IMG/VR virus record: IMGVR_UViG_3300032069_000147
Coordinates: 1-55,388 of that record
Length of the DNA: 55,388 nt
Reading direction: 5' to 3' (one strand)
DNA from: a virus
Lineage: Duplodnaviria > Caudoviricetes
The position numbers and the translations under genes are program-made. This document shows, one piece after another, positions 40,777 through 48,631 of this stretch. Every line of letters starts with the position of its first letter. Position 1 is the stretch's first letter. Below the pieces are notes generated by a model, which saw only the letters and a list, made by a program, of their open reading frames with translations, searched no databases and was not told the DNA's origin.

Positions 40777-41247
40777 TCATATCTGCTTTCCGCCCCTTTC
40801 CTTCCCTTCGCCGCGCTTCCCAAAGCCGAAGGCCCGCAGCGCCTTTCCGCCGGCCCGCAGCCTCCGCAGCACATCCTGCTTCGCCGCCGGGTCCATCACG
40901 GCTAGCGTCTCCAAGAGGCGCATGCATTCGTCGTGCGTGAGCTTCCCCTTGACTTCGTTTCCTCGCTCGGACACGATGCGCAGATTCTCAAACCAGAAAC
41001 TTCCGCCGCGCGAGACCGGCACATCATGGTCCGCCGAGAAATTTCGCACGGTAATCAGTTCGCCCGCGTAGGGACAGCGCTCGCCCAGTTTGAGCATTAT
41101 GCCGTCGCGCAGTCCTTGCAAACTATAATCCAGCTCGCAGCCAGACCGCGCCGCCAATTCCCGCTGGTGACGATAGATGTTCGCGCTGCGGCTCATCAGT
41201 ATCCGCTGCCGGCAATGCTCAAGCGTCTCTCCGGGCTTCCGTTTCAT
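40777..41247 (-). CDS. HNH endonuclease
   Basis: CPYAG...SADHDVPVSRGG....NLRIV...GNEVKG. Confidence 0.8.
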   Translation of the reverse strand: MKRKPGETLEHCRQRILMSRSANIYRHQRELAARSGCELDYSLQGLRDGIMLKLGERCPYAGELITVRNFSADHDVPVSRGGSFWFENLRIVSERGNEVKGKLTHDECMRLLETLAVMDPAAKQDVLRRLRAGGKALRAFGFGKRGEGKERGGKQI

Positions 41248-41275
41248 GCTTTAACCTCCGCAGCACTACGCGAAC

Positions 41276-41457
41276 AATCGGGAGCGGCACGCTTGCAATG
41301 GTTTTCAGTTCGCGGGTGGCCGCTCCCGATTTCTACAAGAGCGCAGGCGGCATCCTTGTAGTGGTGTTCAAATGGGAAGTGGCCGCCTGCGCCCCCTCCT
41401 TGAATGAGATGGTCGGCGCACAGGTTTTGGTTTTCAGTACGTAAATGGCCGACCATC
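41276..41457 (-). ncRNA. TIGR-like stem-loop guide array, distal block (3 units)
   Basis: Units 41408-41457, 41341-41392, 41276-41331; each stem-CCA-N9-TGAA(A/C)ACCA-N9-(T/C)G-stem. Confidence 0.88.
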
Positions 41458-41465
41458 CCCCTGCT

Positions 41466-41948
41466 TCAGGCCGCCGCTTTCCTGGCTTCCTGATAGGCGG
41501 CCAGAATCTCGCGCCGAAGTTCCCGCCATTCCATCCCCAACAGATTCAGCCGCCGCGAATCCGCCGTGACCCGCGCCTTCAGCCGCGCCAAGACGAACTC
41601 CTTCGCCTCGGCGTCGCAGGAATCGACGAATCCGAACGTCCCGTACTCATCGATTACCCGGATAGTAGCCAGTCTGATCGGCTTGCCATCCTTGCCCCGA
41701 TGCATGTGTATACAGTAGCTGTAAAGGAAGCGGCGATAGACCTCATAGACTCCCGCATCCCAAACCTGCTCGTCCGTGTAGAGCGCGCGGATGCGCCCTC
41801 CGTTCTGCCCCTCATCCCAGTCCCGGAGCGACGCGACGCTGGGCTCGACTTCGTTCTTCTTGCACCATTCGCACCAAGCCAGATAATACACCTCGCCTTC
41901 TGAGATTTTCTTCTGCTTCTTTTTCTCGACCGTTGCCGTGGTATCCAT
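41466..41948 (-). CDS. Unknown 160-aa protein embedded in the guide array
   Basis: GAGGAGG RBS; MDTTATVEK...; bracketed by array units. Confidence 0.75.
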   Translation of the reverse strand: MDTTATVEKKKQKKISEGEVYYLAWCEWCKKNEVEPSVASLRDWDEGQNGGRIRALYTDEQVWDAGVYEVYRRFLYSYCIHMHRGKDGKPIRLATIRVIDEYGTFGFVDSCDAEAKEFVLARLKARVTADSRRLNLLGMEWRELRREILAAYQEARKAAA

Positions 41949-41975
41949 CTTCTTCTCCTCCTCGATTTGGAATTT

Positions 41976-42478
41976 GCAGGCGGCTCGCAGTTCCACGCTG
42001 GATTTCACTGCTACCTTGGCAAGCCGCCTGCGCTTGCGAAGACGCCAGCCAGCCTTTGGATTTCACAAAATAGCTGGGCGTCTTCGCGTTCGATCTTCGG
42101 GCTGGCCCACACAAAAGTAGTGGATTCCAGCCTTACATTGGTAAGCCAGCCCATGGGCGCTGGCTTCAGCAAGTCGGTCAATGGTTTTCACCGCGACAAT
42201 GCCTGAAGCCTCGCATCTTTCTTTCACGGCGCGACGCGGCAACGGTATCCTGGTTTTCACACTTCGTTTGGCCGCAATCGCGCCCCCGAAACTATGCATC
42301 GGCACTGACCTGCTGGTTTTCAGCCGACTTACGGCCGCATGCATAGCTTGCTCTTGCCTGCGAGGGAGCCGGCACGACGTCCGTGGATTACAGCGCCGTG
42401 GTGGCCGCCTCCCCCGCAGGCGCCGTTCCGAGGTCGGCAGCTTCGAAGTGGTTTTCAAGTTTCCCTTGGCCGACCTCG
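41976..42478 (-). ncRNA. TIGR-like stem-loop guide array, proximal block (8 units)
   Basis: Loop repeats (+ strand TGG(T/A)TT(T/C/A)CA) at 41999, 42057, 42121, 42182, 42251, 42314, 42384, 42449; each flanked by 9-nt spacers and unique complementary stems. Confidence 0.9.
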
Positions 42479-43482
42479 AATTTCTTCCCATTACCTGACA
42501 CCCAGATTCTTTTCAGGATTTCCTTCATCATCTTCCGCCGCGCCCGCGCCCCGCAGTGCCCCTGCTTTGTCTTGCAGTTGGGGCATTTCGCGTCGTGCGC
42601 CGCGAATTCCTTGGCGTATTCCACCTCATAAAACTGCCGCCACGGATTCGCCCGATTCCTGATAATGGCCGTTCCGGCCAGATAAACCGCCGTGCGCATG
42701 GCCGGCGACCAATGCGACGCCACGCCCCGCGTCCGCTTCGGCGCTTTGCCATTCTCCACCGACTGGCCGCAGAATCGCCAGAATGCCGCCACGCTCGGGA
42801 ACCTCTCGAAGCCCCCGGAGAAGGCCACGAACGTCGCCGCAGAAATCCACTCCTGGACGTGCAGAATCCTCCGCGCCATTTCGCATTCGGGAATCTTCGC
42901 CGCCAACTTCGCGATGTAGGTGTCAAGCTGCGTGCCCTCTTCTGAGACCACTGACGTGCGAATCTCCCCCAGTTTTTCTAGCGCCTGCTTGAACATCGGC
43001 TCAGCCTTCATTGAATCCTCATCGGCCAAACCCATGTTCCGAGCTTCCTGCTTCACCGCCCGCAGCGCATCTCCGTAGAAATGAACGACGGCGCCGCGAA
43101 GCGAGAGAGCGTGCCGCAACTGAGCGATGTCCGGCCGGGGCTGAAACTCACGGAAAATTCCATCCGGCAATTTCGCCCACGCCGCAACGATCTCTTGCGG
43201 CGGAAGATTCTTCTCGATTCCCGTCTGGTGCCAATGCGTATAAAGCAGCTTCACGCCTCGCTCCGCCAATGCGAACAAGAGACTGTCCGTGGCGCGCACC
43301 GCCGTTAGACGCACAATGTCTCCCGTCTTCAGTGATCTAACGAAGTCGTTCAGCTTTGCCCCGGTTAGGCGCTCAACGCCCTCGCCGTGCGAGACATAAG
43401 CCGTAGGTGTTCGTCTGCCATCGGTCTTCTCGTAGCAGACATGTAGAGCAATGATTTTTTCTCGGTTGAATTTTACTGACAT
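42388..43482 (-). CDS. Tas-like (IS110/Nop-domain) RNA-guided protein with degenerate RuvC-like N-terminus
   Basis: ERFPSVAAFWRFCG...GKAPKRTRG...WSPAMRT...NPWRQFY...ARARRKMMKEILKRIW; adjacent to dual-spacer array. Confidence 0.82.
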   Translation of the reverse strand: MSVKFNREKIIALHVCYEKTDGRRTPTAYVSHGEGVERLTGAKLNDFVRSLKTGDIVRLTAVRATDSLLFALAERGVKLLYTHWHQTGIEKNLPPQEIVAAWAKLPDGIFREFQPRPDIAQLRHALSLRGAVVHFYGDALRAVKQEARNMGLADEDSMKAEPMFKQALEKLGEIRTSVVSEEGTQLDTYIAKLAAKIPECEMARRILHVQEWISAATFVAFSGGFERFPSVAAFWRFCGQSVENGKAPKRTRGVASHWSPAMRTAVYLAGTAIIRNRANPWRQFYEVEYAKEFAAHDAKCPNCKTKQGHCGARARRKMMKEILKRIWVSGNGKKFEVGQGKLENHFEAADLGTAPAGEAATTAL

Positions 43483-43500: not shown

Positions 43501-43953
43501 TTATCGCTTCTCCTTCACACTCCATTTGGGCTCAGGCCCAGCTTTTCGGTGGCACTCGGCGCACAGAGTCGCCAGATTCCGGACTTTCTTGCCGTCTATC
43601 ATAATCCAGATGCGGTCATCTCTCCGTCCCCCGCTCATGCCTCTCCCACGCACGTGGTGAATCTCGGCCTCGTTCGCCAGGCCTTTTCCTGGCGGGCTCA
43701 GGAATTTTCCGCAACTATCGCAGCATCCGCCGTCAAGCAGAAAGACATCCATCTTCCGTTCCCGCCATGCCGCGCCGCTGAGCGCTTCCCGGCCGTCACG
43801 ATAGACGACCCGCAGGCGCTTCTTAGCTCGTTTAAGCTTTGGCGGCTGGGAATCGCGGTCAATCGTCTCGCAGGCGCGAAGGCGACAAACCCAAGCGCGC
43901 TTTGACGGCAGCCAGCGGAGCGTGCGGTTGTGACTCGGACATCGAGGTTTCAT
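43501..43953 (-). CDS. HNH endonuclease
   Basis: CDSCG...EIHHVRGRGMSGG...NLATLCAECH. Confidence 0.8.
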   Translation of the reverse strand: MKPRCPSHNRTLRWLPSKRAWVCRLRACETIDRDSQPPKLKRAKKRLRVVYRDGREALSGAAWRERKMDVFLLDGGCCDSCGKFLSPPGKGLANEAEIHHVRGRGMSGGRRDDRIWIMIDGKKVRNLATLCAECHRKAGPEPKWSVKEKR

Positions 43954-44531
43954 CGTTGCACCTCGCACGCCGACTCTAACGCCGTCAGCGCACTATCATC
44001 GTATCGCAGATCAAAATCAGCGAAGATGGCCTCCAGTGCAACCGTCTTGCTATCCGTCTGATTCAGCCGCTTCGCCTTCTCGATGCACCGCTCGATGACC
44101 GGGACGAACGAACGCGGCACAGTGAAGAACACCTGGACATTGCCTTCCAATAGCAGGCCGGGAACGCGCTCTGATACCGTGTGCTCGAACGTGCGCTCCG
44201 TCTGCGAATTCGCCGCATGAAGCAGTTCCTTCCGCCTCGATGTCGGAACCTTGCTAAGCACAATCGCGTTCGCCAGCGTCAGGGATTCAATCTCCGTCTC
44301 GTCCATCCCGCCGGCGCATAACTCCTCAATCGCGTGCATCCCGGCATAGGCCGTAGACCGGCTGCGCCCGAATTTTGCCTCCACCCAGTCGCCGAAGCGC
44401 TCGTAGCCGAGTTCCTTATAAAATCGTTGCTGCCGGCATTCCTGGCAGAGCTTCGCCACGCGAATCCAGGCCCGCCCAATTATCCGAGCAAGTTCGTCCG
44501 CTTCCTTGTCAAGCTGCTGTGCTCGGGTCAT
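43950..44531 (-). CDS. Putative DNA-binding protein
   Basis: FYKELGYERFGDWVEAKFGRSRSTAY, a common phage motif. Confidence 0.6.
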   Translation of the reverse strand: MTRAQQLDKEADELARIIGRAWIRVAKLCQECRQQRFYKELGYERFGDWVEAKFGRSRSTAYAGMHAIEELCAGGMDETEIESLTLANAIVLSKVPTSRRKELLHAANSQTERTFEHTVSERVPGLLLEGNVQVFFTVPRSFVPVIERCIEKAKRLNQTDSKTVALEAIFADFDLRYDDSALTALESACEVQR

Positions 44532-45477: not shown

Positions 45478-46002
45478 TTAGCCAGGGGTTATTGACCGCG
45501 TCATGCGCTCCGGATGACTTGATGCTATAACCAGATTCCCGCGAAAGCTCCTAGCTTTATAGCTTCTAAAATGCGTGCCGTCTCGGTTGTTTCTGTCATT
45601 GTAGACGATCCAACTTGAGGAATACTCCAGGCGGAAAACTTCCAGATCAAGCAGCGACCATTGTAAAAGTACAGGTGGCTGCTGGCCTCCAAAACCATAG
45701 AAAAACCAATCGCCAAATCCCTGAATGATTTTCGCCAATTCAGTAGGCGAACCCGACTCACGCTCGCTGCGAATGGTAAATTCATACCGATAGGGATAGT
45801 CAGGAGGGTGCGCCACATAGTACTCTGGGCGACGAATCCGCACCGCTATTTTCATGTCTCGGGCTATAAGTATCAGCAGATCCGTGTTCTCCAAAACATC
45901 CATTTCAAAAGGCGCCGGCTCTAGCAGGCGCGGGCCGACAATCCGCTTGACCTCTGGAATGTAAAGATCAGACCACCGCTTGTCGTCTTGCCAAGTAATC
46001 AT
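45478..46002 (-). CDS. Hypothetical protein coupled to MT-A70, possible nuclease fold
   Basis: ATGA overlap with MTase; D....TDL....IAVRIRR; lower GC. Confidence 0.6.
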   Translation of the reverse strand: MITWQDDKRWSDLYIPEVKRIVGPRLLEPAPFEMDVLENTDLLILIARDMKIAVRIRRPEYYVAHPPDYPYRYEFTIRSERESGSPTELAKIIQGFGDWFFYGFGGQQPPVLLQWSLLDLEVFRLEYSSSWIVYNDRNNRDGTHFRSYKARSFRGNLVIASSHPERMTRSITPG

Positions 46003-46991
46003 GAGCTTTCCTTGCCCCAACCCTCGAATCCCGGAATCGCTCGCCGATTAAACATGTCCAGCCGACGGCCCGCCGTCACGCGCGTTAGGGTCTCATAAAA
46101 CTCGGCTGGCTTGACGCTGTGTCCGGTGCGCTCAGCTTCGAATCCGATGAGAAAATTCTTGGTAGTCGTGAAGCTCGGCGATCCCCGGCGCGCATATAGG
46201 CAAAGTTCCAAATTGTACTGCGGCAATCCCACCGGCTGAAATCCCCCCGGCTTCAGCCAGCCGAAGCAGCAAACATACTTGAGTCCCCATGCCTCTAGCA
46301 GTCTGATCGCCGTCGGCAGATAGCGCTGGACGACCCACAGGAACACGTGACAATTCTCAGCCGCGTGCCCGGCGAACCTTTCACCGATTTCGAATCGGAT
46401 CTCATCAAGCGTCATCGTCGGATAGTCAAACGCCACCTGGTTGGGACGCAAATCTCGCTCGATCTTTTCCAGCGGCCATGGAGGGTCGATCACCATCACA
46501 TCGAATTTCCCAGCTAGTTCCTTCGCCTGCAGAGTCTCGATACTGTTAAGTTTCTCCTTAACTTCGACGCGCTTCAGTTCGCGTCGAGCGGCGCCCAGCG
46601 TCAATTCGCCGGAGACGTAGGCCTTCCGCAAGTCTCCAGGCAGGCGAGCTACCGCCTGCGCTTCCATGCTCTCTTTCCGTGTCACGCCGAGTTCGGAGAG
46701 AGTCGGCGCATCCCCGCTGTTCCCAACAGGAACAGCGGGACCCCGCTTTAGACGTCCCTTTGCCCGCTCAGTGGCTTGCAGCAGTTCGCCCATCCGCTCC
46801 TGCGCCAGCCGGGCATACTTCTGCGAATTGGCAACGACCTCGTCACCCAATTTCTTCCGCCGCGCCCAATCGGCTGCTGTCAGAGCGAGATCCTTGAGCT
46901 CCTTTGCTTTCTGCAGGGTCGTCGCCTCGGCTAGCATCTGCGAAGCGCGGCCCATAAGGACCAAGGAATTGCTTGATTTAGATGGGTTCAT
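45999..46991 (-). CDS. MT-A70 family adenine methyltransferase with N-terminal helical domain
   Basis: VIDPPW, YPTMTLDEI, HSVKP, RRLDMFNRR...WGKE. Confidence 0.9.
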   Translation of the reverse strand: MNPSKSSNSLVLMGRASQMLAEATTLQKAKELKDLALTAADWARRKKLGDEVVANSQKYARLAQERMGELLQATERAKGRLKRGPAVPVGNSGDAPTLSELGVTRKESMEAQAVARLPGDLRKAYVSGELTLGAARRELKRVEVKEKLNSIETLQAKELAGKFDVMVIDPPWPLEKIERDLRPNQVAFDYPTMTLDEIRFEIGERFAGHAAENCHVFLWVVQRYLPTAIRLLEAWGLKYVCCFGWLKPGGFQPVGLPQYNLELCLYARRGSPSFTTTKNFLIGFEAERTGHSVKPAEFYETLTRVTAGRRLDMFNRRAIPGFEGWGKESS

Positions 46992-47727
46992 GGTTCCCCG
47001 CCGCCTCCGCCTTGTAGTCTTGCGCCTGCGTCTGAGCGTGTCCGACAATCGGACGCGGCTTGACCGGCCCGTCCGGCTTGCTTTCAATCGCGATCCGCGC
47101 GCCGTTCTTGAGCGCCGCGTCGCAACTGTCGCACACGAGCAAGCCTTTGAAGTACGGGATCCAGTTCTGCGTCTGTATGGGATATTTCTTCGCCAGCCAG
47201 ACGATCATCGGATTAATCATCTTCGTGAATTCGTGACCACAGAAGGGGCAGCGGCATTTGTCCGCCGAGCATTCCACGTGAATCGCTTCGTAGGCGTCCG
47301 GCCCGACGAAGGCCAGCAAGGCTCGGGCTTCGGATACTTTTGGCAGCGTGGAGGCCCTCCGCCTCGCTTCACCGACGGCCGACTGGGCCTTCTTGTACTC
47401 CACGATTGCCTTGCGCGCCCGCTCGAGTTTCGCGCAGCACTGGTGTTCGGGCGGCCCGAACTTCACCGTCATCACCGGGCGCTCCTCGATCATCCGGTTA
47501 CGCCTCGCCTCTTTCGCCAGCCAATAGATCGCCGCCGGCCGGGGTTCCCTCTGCCCCTCCTGACTGCTCTTATATTGCTCGATCGCTGTGGCAAAGTCCC
47601 GCACATCCACATCAGCGAACGTGCGGTACCAGGCTTCACGTAGTTTTTTCAACTGCCCTTCGGAACGGTTCGAGAAATATATGCTCTCAAGCTGGAGCAT
47701 TTCTGCGTCGAAGTCGCTCTGCTGCAC
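46978..47727 (-). CDS. Replication-associated protein (helicase loader-like N-terminus)
   Basis: Follows initiator; AWY..FADV...F..AI......PRPAAI. Confidence 0.5.
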   Translation of the reverse strand: MQQSDFDAEMLQLESIYFSNRSEGQLKKLREAWYRTFADVDVRDFATAIEQYKSSQEGQREPRPAAIYWLAKEARRNRMIEERPVMTVKFGPPEHQCCAKLERARKAIVEYKKAQSAVGEARRRASTLPKVSEARALLAFVGPDAYEAIHVECSADKCRCPFCGHEFTKMINPMIVWLAKKYPIQTQNWIPYFKGLLVCDSCDAALKNGARIAIESKPDGPVKPRPIVGHAQTQAQDYKAEAAGNHEPI

Positions 47728-48631
47728 GTTGTTGCGCCTCCTGTTCGATGCGTTGCATTATTGCCTCGTGCTCGCGGTCTTCTTCCGCCGTGGATTGTCT
47801 CTTGCCGATTCGCGGCGTGATCTCCCATTGGTGGCGCTCCAGGAATCTATCGGCCCGCTCGATACGATCATTCTCCCACTGTTCGCACTTCTTCCACAGC
47901 TCCAATCCCTGCACGAGCTGTGTCCGACAATCGGACGTTTTGATTTCCGTCAGGAATATCTTGGCCGTCTTTTTCTTGTCCCCCCGCCGATGGGCAGGAT
48001 AGCTAAACCAGAAATCTTCGAAGCCTTCGGGCCAGAGAGGTTTTGGGGGAAGCTTTATTTGGTTGCTTTCCAAACCAAATAAAGCAGAGGGTTCCTCTGT
48101 AGTAATCTCTGTAGTAATCTCTGGTATTGCTCGTCCCTTTTCGCCCGACCGTGGTCCCTTTTCGCCCGACGATAGTCCCTTTTGGCCACTCGATAATCCC
48201 TTTTGGGACAATCGGCCGGTTGCTCTTAGCCATTCCATTATGACTTCTGGCTTAAACAGAAAATGCCTGGTCCGGTCGAATTTATATCGGGGATTTGGAT
48301 TCTGCATCACAAGGATCACGCCCTTTTTTTCGAGTCGATTGATCGCGTCGGCAATCGCTTTGCGTTTGAAAATCAAAACGCCAGCCTCTAGGTCTTCGGC
48401 GGTATGAAATTGGATCAGGGATTCATTCTGTGTGGCTGGATCGCCGTGTAACTTCTGAATCGTATTTTCCTGCTCGGCTTTGTGTGACTGCTCTAGCTTG
48501 ATGTTGTGCCAGTATTCGAAGAACGATAATAGGGCGGCGGCGCACTGGTTGCCTTCGCAAAATTCAATCTGCCATTTGCGAATAATGATTAGCGGCTCGC
48601 TGTTTGGATGTGAAATACAAGACGATTTCAT
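47687..48631 (-). CDS. Replication initiator (lambda O-like)
   Basis: AAALLSFFEYW N-terminal domain; internal iterons; EITTEITTE; FEDFWFSYP. Confidence 0.8.
   Translation of the reverse strand: MKSSCISHPNSEPLIIIRKWQIEFCEGNQCAAALLSFFEYWHNIKLEQSHKAEQENTIQKLHGDPATQNESLIQFHTAEDLEAGVLIFKRKAIADAINRLEKKGVILVMQNPNPRYKFDRTRHFLFKPEVIMEWLRATGRLSQKGLSSGQKGLSSGEKGPRSGEKGRAIPEITTEITTEEPSALFGLESNQIKLPPKPLWPEGFEDFWFSYPAHRRGDKKKTAKIFLTEIKTSDCRTQLVQGLELWKKCEQWENDRIERADRFLERHQWEITPRIGKRQSTAEEDREHEAIMQRIEQEAQQRAAERLRRRNAPA
48097..48212. repeat. Putative origin: four 21-bp-period iterons plus 12-bp tandem repeat
   Basis: (G/A)TCCCTTTT(C/G)G at 48133, 48154, 48175, 48196; TCTGTAGTAATC x2. Confidence 0.75.

Follow-up and report, generated by a model that had tools for sequence, protein, structure and literature searches.

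A phage-borne TasR-type protein whose RuvC-like domain lacks the canonical carboxylates, encoded with its own stem-loop tigRNA array

The closest described relatives of the protein reported here are TasR-type Tas proteins, which combine a RuvC-like domain, a coiled coil and a Nop domain. TaTasR (PDB 9MTY) is an active nuclease with the carboxylates D11/E43/D87/D90 that cuts both strands and uses 36-nt dual-repeat tigRNAs. Tas proteins with a predicted inactive RuvC domain were already noted by Faure et al. 2025 (PMC12045711), and Xu et al. (bioRxiv, September 2026; 10.64898/2026.09.09.750476) have since solved two stem-loop TasRs with dead RuvC domains, PateTasR and CsTasR, neither of which cleaves. 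The same study shows that dead stem-loop TasRs can bind DNA and silence transcription, with guide-dependent, reversible repression by CsTasR and by a TasA, and describes tigRNA units within the 3' part of tas; Guan et al. (10.64898/2026.08.11.744272) report the same logic for TasA and a dead TasH. A full-text literature search on the subject returned these three papers only. We describe here the tas gene and TIGR array of IMG/VR record IMGVR_UViG_3300032069_000147, a single contig of 55,388 bases that was analysed whole (the window) and that encodes a large terminase (PHROG 38, E = 5e-75), portal, head protease, MT-A70 methyltransferase and HNH endonucleases, as befits a phage. The open reading frame (ORF) at 42388..43482 on the minus strand, the strand of all genes and array features given below, encodes a 364-aa Tas protein of the TasR type that has its own tigRNA array.

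The phage locus is like those of PateTasR and CsTasR in the N-terminal RuvC fold without catalytic residues, in stem-loop tigRNAs with two spacers of about 9 nt, in units that may lie inside the 3' end of tas, and perhaps in lacking a Y/H processing loop. It differs in that PateTasR and CsTasR come from Candidate Phyla Radiation (CPR) bacteria, whereas this protein is on a 55-kb phage contig, and in that its box C reads CCA and its 9-nt loop (UGAAAACCA) is conserved, features shared with the dual-repeat TaTasR; for PateTasR the reported boxes are CUU/UG. The substitutions also differ, being H/T/L/Q here and R8/V126 in CsTasR, with R91 filling the pocket in PateTasR, a comparison drawn from the published descriptions. 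A dead stem-loop TasR is therefore a kind already in print, and the phage protein is a phage-borne addition to it with a distinctive set of features: its carriage by a phage, stem-loop edges combined with CCA/UG boxes and a loop like that of TaTasR, the His/Thr/Leu/Gln pattern, a conserved His-rich pocket, and a Cys/His cluster in the Nop domain. We consider it probable that the protein is an RNA-guided DNA binder with a dead RuvC domain, acting by occupancy and most likely without cutting.

Tas identity and the N-terminal fold

The full-length AlphaFold2 model has a predicted local distance difference test score (pLDDT) of 83.9, falling below 50 only at residues 1-5 and 334-364. It aligns end to end with TaTasR 9mty_A (Foldseek E = 3e-12, 333 columns) and over about 346 columns with the IS621 and ISCro4 recombinases (Foldseek E = 1.4e-8 to 3.9e-7), whereas TasH is aligned over 231-262 columns only. 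The IS110 bridge-RNA recombinases (IS621 8WT6/8WT9, ISCro4 9T56) share the arrangement of a RuvC-like N-domain followed by a Nop-related C-domain, although TaTasR is the best match to the phage protein by both sequence and fold. In the Nop-type C-terminal domain (residues 186-332, 42487..42927), a single-sequence search of solved structures finds TaTasR 9mty_A at E = 1.9e-15 (residues 215-330) and TasH at 2.5e-3, and a profile search with 22 sequences finds the same two at 7.8e-32 and 7.4e-14. NCBIfam TIGR_Tas_endo is matched at E = 8.1e-25, with 88.1 bits against a cut-off of 100; there is also a match to PHROG 4285, labelled 'transposase' (E = 2.1e-18), and a weak one to Pfam Transposase_20 (E = 9.7e-4, 19.9 bits, under the gathering cut-off of 21.3). 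All sequence matches, whether from Pfam (E <= 1), PHROGs, NCBIfam or the PDB (single-sequence and profile), are to the C-terminal half only, with none to the N-domain.

The N-terminal domain (residues 9-112, 43147..43458) is recognized through its structure. An initial annotation had proposed an RNase H-like strand and helix pattern for 43150-43482, and the peptide strings that it quoted are present in the ORF, in which this segment corresponds to residues 1-111. An AlphaFold2 model of residues 1-115 from a 51-row alignment has a mean pLDDT of 92.3 and comprises, in order, strands at 10-20, 23-31 and 36-40, a helix at 41-50, a strand at 56-59, a helix at 67-74, a strand at 78-81, and helices at 84-87 and 95-103; this b1-b2-b3-a1-b4-a2-b5-a order is that of RNase H and RuvC. 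Among 48,161 PDB representatives compared with VIA-align, the best match is the RuvC domain of TaTasR (9mty_B, Z 9.6, root-mean-square deviation 2.9 A over 90 residues, model residues 9-115 against 6-110), the only chain at Z >= 8, so that the proposed pattern is confirmed by both the order of elements and the nearest structure. The second match is the ISCro4 IS110 recombinase 9t56_A (Z 7.8), and further down are T. thermophilus RuvC (Z 6.4) and MOC1, phage RuvC, RuvX/YqgF and TnpB (Z about 6); Nop5 is not among the best 50 matches listed for the N-domain. A best Z of 7-8 is frequent for models that have no true match, and we note that the two top matches here are the RuvC domains of both families whose C-terminal halves are also matched. 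The phage protein has a helix between b3 and b4 that is missing from TaTasR. Pairwise identity averages 33% across the N-domain, against 29% for the coiled coil and 43% for the Nop domain.

The two domains are joined by a predicted coiled-coil arm (42952..43134) with long helices at residues 117-149 and 155-177 that fall in segments aligned with TasR and TasH. A two-copy prediction for residues 1-335 scored 0.28 against a mark of 0.42, and says nothing either way on a dimer. The CPNC...HC cluster pointed out in the initial annotation is both real and conserved; it lies in the Nop domain as H296-x3-C300-x2-C303-x5-H309-C310 (42553..42597), a candidate zinc knuckle. Its conservation was followed in 66 full-length relatives (76 stored proteins match the N-domain at E <= 1e-6, of which 65 are at least 300 aa, and the query was added), where H296 is kept in 61, C303 in 56 and H309 in 61, position 300 is Cys in 34 and His in 19, and position 310 is Cys in 30 and Ser in 21. 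The pattern H-x3-[C/H]-x2-C-x5-H-[C/S] is thus kept in 53-61 of the 66, with Cys/His exchange at position 300, and resembles a small zinc-binding insertion within the Nop domain; the cluster is missing from TaTasR, which has no Cys there.

The last helix is followed by a disordered 31-residue tail (residues 334-364, 42391..42483, pLDDT below 50) whose codons are also tigRNA units 1 and 2. The tail contains no Tyr. The only motif conserved in the tails of relatives (E-N-H, E-N-Q or E-T-H) is the translated loop repeat GAAAACCA, and its conservation therefore reflects a constraint on the RNA rather than on the protein.

Catalytic positions and the former pocket

D11, E43, D87 and D90 of TaTasR are members of its D, xEN and DxxD motifs (numbering from the alignment of sequence P0097 to 9mty_A), and 20 of 25 TaTasR-like sequences have all four. 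We aligned the family N-domain profile (64 of the 66 rows used) with a profile of active TasR N-domains using hhalign, which gave E = 5.6e-5 globally (probability 38%) and 1.2e-3 locally (19%). The alignment pairs H14 with D11, L93 with D87 and Q96 with D90, and places E43 opposite V62 across a two-residue gap; by the secondary-structure register, T60, the first residue after b4, is opposite E43. The initial annotation had read 'H, T and non-acidic residues' at the acidic positions, and H14, T60, L93 and Q96 agree with it. The codon of His14, the residue at the position of the catalytic Asp11 of TaTasR, is at 43441..43443, and that of Thr60 is at 43303..43305. Residues 83-96 (43195..43236) comprise H83-W84-H85 just after b5, G88, K91, and the L93 and Q96 that face Asp87 and Asp90.

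These replacements extend well beyond the phage. At position 14, 65 of the 66 relatives have His and the remaining one has Asn, with no Asp or Glu; positions 57-62 and 93 have Asp or Glu in none of them, with position 60 being Thr in 57 and Ser in four. Position 96 is acidic in 50 relatives and Gln in the phage protein. Three of the four canonical carboxylate positions are therefore non-acidic in all 66 relatives, and all four are non-acidic in the phage protein, whose domain, RuvC-like in fold, retains no acidic site of the TasR kind. With His, Thr, Leu and Gln in place of Asp, Glu, Asp and Asp, the two-metal RuvC site cannot form. The segment G88-I-E-K91 aligns with the 'IEK' that precedes the third Asp of active TasR (a G-[IL]-E-K segment), which favours a shared ancestry for the two domains. 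In the TaTasR-like group, whose members are otherwise active, we also observed P0117, which is without all four carboxylates, and P0141, which has Asn for the first Asp, and these substitutions suggest that the RuvC site has been lost more than once among Tas proteins.

IS110 recombinases need a DEDD motif and a catalytic Ser in the C-terminal domain. Pfam DEDD_Tnp_IS110 gives no match at E <= 1, and the IS110 SG motif, which the initial annotation had not found, is not evident here either, in the sense that no Ser is invariant or at least 90% conserved in the 22-row alignment. The site aligned with 'DNGK' of TaTasR is N244-G245, and position 244 is Asp in 37, Asn in 14, Glu in nine and Ser in two of the 66 relatives.

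The N-domain is under purifying selection, with ratios of nonsynonymous to synonymous substitution (dN/dS) of 0.19 against related locus L001 and 0.28 against L003 (dS is saturated against L004), and 0.05-0.10 elsewhere in the protein. Since the residues around the former pocket are in addition nearly invariant (counts below), the N-domain must be kept by selection for something, and the pattern of conservation suggests a former active site that is repurposed rather than decayed. The dead RuvC domain of PateTasR is fixed to the coiled coil, makes contact with box D and takes part in holding the DNA (10.64898/2026.09.09.750476), and a scaffold role of this sort would suffice to explain the conservation seen here.

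The tigRNA array

There are 11 stem-loop tigRNA units downstream of tas on the same strand, with the organization stem / CCA / 9 nt / UGAAAACCA / 9 nt / UG / stem', in which the core between stem and stem' follows the pattern CCA / 9 nt / UG-NNNN-CCA / 9 nt / UG. Eight units form sub-array 1 (41976..42480; stem / CCA / 9-nt spacer A / UGNNNNCCA / 9-nt spacer B / UG / stem'), the first two of which overlap the final codons of tas, and three form sub-array 2 (41276..41459). A regular expression for the loop finds 13 sites in 41200-42560, and two without a flanking stem were dropped, one at 42111 inside unit 6 and one at 41947 at an ORF start. Strict boxes (CCA-N9-UGNNNNCCA-N9-UG) are present in eight of the 11 units, and six have UGAAAACCA as their loop. 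When folded, each of the 11 forms a closing stem (z -2.3 to -6.0 relative to shuffles). The edges of the units are variable palindromic stems of about 8-17 bp that replace the edge repeats, and the loop repeat is conserved. This fits the stem-loop TIGR sub-type with a loop of conserved length and sequence that is described by Faure et al. (PMC12045711), and box C (CCA), box D (UG) and the A-rich 9-nt loop are shared with TaTasR as reported there. The suggestion in the initial annotation that the protein is RNA-guided is thus well founded, in that it is a Tas protein with a tigRNA array of its own.

Of 16 related loci, 13 have such units on the strand of tas, with 77 same-strand and seven opposite-strand units recovered by the same filter; this filter finds none in L008, L009 and L011. 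Close relatives keep the stems and differ in the spacers. When the units of the window are set against those of L001 (4014-5140) and L003 (1089-2220), phages whose Tas proteins are 87% identical have nearly identical stems in matching units and most spacers are unrelated, which implies that spacers turn over inside fixed stems. We also note that the unit with its window loop at 42065 differs from its L001 counterpart by single bases in each spacer.

Proposed mode of action, neighbouring genes and significance

The properties of the phage protein suggest the following model. The Nop domain and coiled coil would bind stem-loop tigRNAs transcribed from the 11 downstream units, and the protein would act as a dimer, by homology with the solved Tas complexes. 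Target recognition would involve both 9-nt spacers of a tigRNA, each pairing with a different strand of an 18-bp stretch of DNA. The N-domain, keeping the RuvC fold but predicted to be incapable of building a two-metal site, would most likely not cleave the DNA and would instead serve as a scaffold contacting DNA or RNA, and the complex might occupy a target in the host or in a rival element and so block transcription, or possibly replication. The initial annotation had likewise preferred a DNA binder to a nuclease or recombinase; that preference is supported, and for the phage protein we infer it because experiments on PateTasR and CsTasR, both dead stem-loop TasRs, detected no cleavage, and the latter acted as a repressor.

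Several observations weigh against this interpretation or temper it. Foldseek with the N-domain alone gives no matches at E <= 0.001, the best being at 2.6e-3; 9mty_B is at rank 47, with the highest TMq (0.51), and the recognized rows are RNase H-like (integrase cores, Argonaute PIWI, UvrC, EndoV, RNase H1 and 9mty_B), with MutSbeta among the other rows. The residue equivalences rest on the secondary-structure register and on the modest hhalign score. A scan of both strands of the 55-kb contig with the 18-nt composites rc(A)+B and B+rc(A) from all 11 units found no target with two or fewer mismatches for any 18-bp composite; the best matches are three with three mismatches (units 2, 2 and 10), which is about the number estimated for chance. 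There is an HNH gene 18 nt upstream of tas in the phage and in its closest relative. Finally, the former pocket is nearly invariant, with H14 in 65, R58 in 59, W84 in 62, H85 in 65 and K91 in 59 of the 66 relatives, together with T60 and G88, and position 83 is His in 45, Asn in 11 and Tyr in seven; acidic residues persist nearby (D66 in 52, position 96 in 50 and E97 in 48), so that another chemistry at this site is possible.

The last of these points raises the alternative that what was the RuvC pocket has been rebuilt as a new site for catalysis or recognition, formed by His14, His83, His85 and Trp84 with Asp66 and Glu96/97 nearby, which would carry out or license tigRNA maturation, or would grip or read box D or the stem, with DNA left uncut. 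The conservation of the histidines and Trp84 and the low dN/dS of the N-domain are in keeping with this, as is the contact that a RuvC-domain residue, S75, makes with box D in PateTasR, and the enzyme that processes stem-loop tigRNAs is left unassigned by Xu et al. (10.64898/2026.09.09.750476). The same authors favour a host RNase, however, since maturation occurs in E. coli, and the conserved residues may simply pack on the coiled coil as R58 does in PateTasR. We regard a rebuilt pocket as unlikely, but if it were true, what was once the catalytic centre of a nuclease would now handle RNA within an RNA-guided effector.

A second alternative is that the dead RuvC domain is a docking platform that recruits a separate enzyme to the site specified by the RNA, for which one candidate is the HNH endonuclease encoded upstream (43501-43968, Pfam HNH E = 3.6e-5). 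This gene is co-oriented with tas and nearly abuts it, its stop being 18 nt from the tas ATG at 43482, which is preceded by AGGAGAGGAG. The Nop5 and Nop56-58 proteins of box C/D small nucleolar ribonucleoproteins (snoRNPs) offer a precedent, as they similarly combine a Nop domain, a coiled coil and an inactive RuvC-like scaffold, and the dead N-terminal domain of Nop5 recruits fibrillarin, according to the account in PMC12045711; Nop5 guides RNA methylation through fibrillarin, whereas no such partner is evident here. The HNH gene is present at 86% identity in L001 and weakly, at 26%, in L004, but is undetected by tblastn in the other 14 of the 16 related loci, many of which are short, and none of ten neighbouring ORFs in the divergent loci L002, L009 and L013 matches HNH or another nuclease family. 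A conserved nuclease partner acting in trans is thus unlikely. Moreover, phages often carry free-standing HNH genes, and there is another on the far side of this locus. Docking of a partner enzyme therefore seems to us quite improbable.

It has also to be considered whether the protein is still a DNA nuclease, binding metal at a non-canonical site through His and the Asp and Glu that remain. Conserved His, Asp and Glu residues are present near the pocket and position 96 is commonly acidic, but three of the four carboxylates are missing from every relative and all four from the phage protein, the single D11A change is enough to give a dead TaTasR (PMC12045711), and neither of the two dead TasRs tested cleaved (10.64898/2026.09.09.750476). 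We consider retained cleavage very improbable. An IS110-family RNA-guided recombinase, or transposase, as the Transposase_20 (below cut-off) and PHROG 4285 labels and the IS621 and ISCro4 structural neighbours might suggest, is extremely improbable, there being no DEDD and no conserved Ser, TasR being closer by both sequence and fold, and the flanking RNA being a tandem dual-spacer box C/D array, whereas the IS110 guide is a bridge RNA.

Occupancy of DNA without cleavage, which we favour for the phage protein, has parallels in Cas12k, Cas12m (type V-M) and type IV systems, which are similarly RNA-guided and often on mobile elements. These naturally nuclease-deficient CRISPR effectors, named by both Faure et al. 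and Xu et al., are, however, unrelated proteins with single-spacer CRISPR RNAs, and several keep their RuvC carboxylates.

The surroundings of the locus include several further features. The TIGR-Tas locus is bracketed by two free-standing HNH genes, that at 43501-43968 and that on the downstream side at 40777-41247; the product of the latter faintly resembles the HNH region of IscB and Cas9d (E = 4e-4 to 6e-4, well short of the cut-offs). Between the two sub-arrays, and so between units 8 and 9, is a 160-aa ORF (41466-41948) with the ribosome-binding site GGAGG, which is kept at the same place in L001, L003, L004 and L005 with 65-88% identity and has no match in Pfam, PHROGs, NCBIfam or the ESM Atlas; possibly it has an accessory role in this TIGR clade. 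The MT-A70 DNA methyltransferase (45999-47087) is 2.5 kb upstream of tas and has an N-terminal extension of about 190 residues without a known family, and no linkage to tas was seen within the 3-kb flanks of related loci. At 48095-48206 a 12-nt repeat present 2.4 times (CTCTGTAGTAAT) is followed by a 21-nt repeat present 3.5 times (GTCCCTTTTCGCCCGACC...), and these adjoin a perfect 13-nt hairpin at 48052-48085; the arrangement is iteron-like and may be an origin or a regulatory region.

The N-domain family has about 50 representatives at E <= 1e-30 among the 1.84 billion searched, and in the collections searched it is known only from metagenomes. Among 50,697 records of isolated phages, tblastn finds five that match, over residues 225-345 only, and the N-domain in none. 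The gain from this phage protein is incremental, its novelty being low as a kind and moderate in its details. Nonetheless, it places a phage among the carriers of what are probably naturally nuclease-dead RNA-guided DNA binders, which are compact (about 330 structured residues), do not need a protospacer-adjacent motif (PAM), and are of interest as programmable repressors. The features of this clade could help to explain how stem-loop tigRNAs are matured and what role the dead domain plays.

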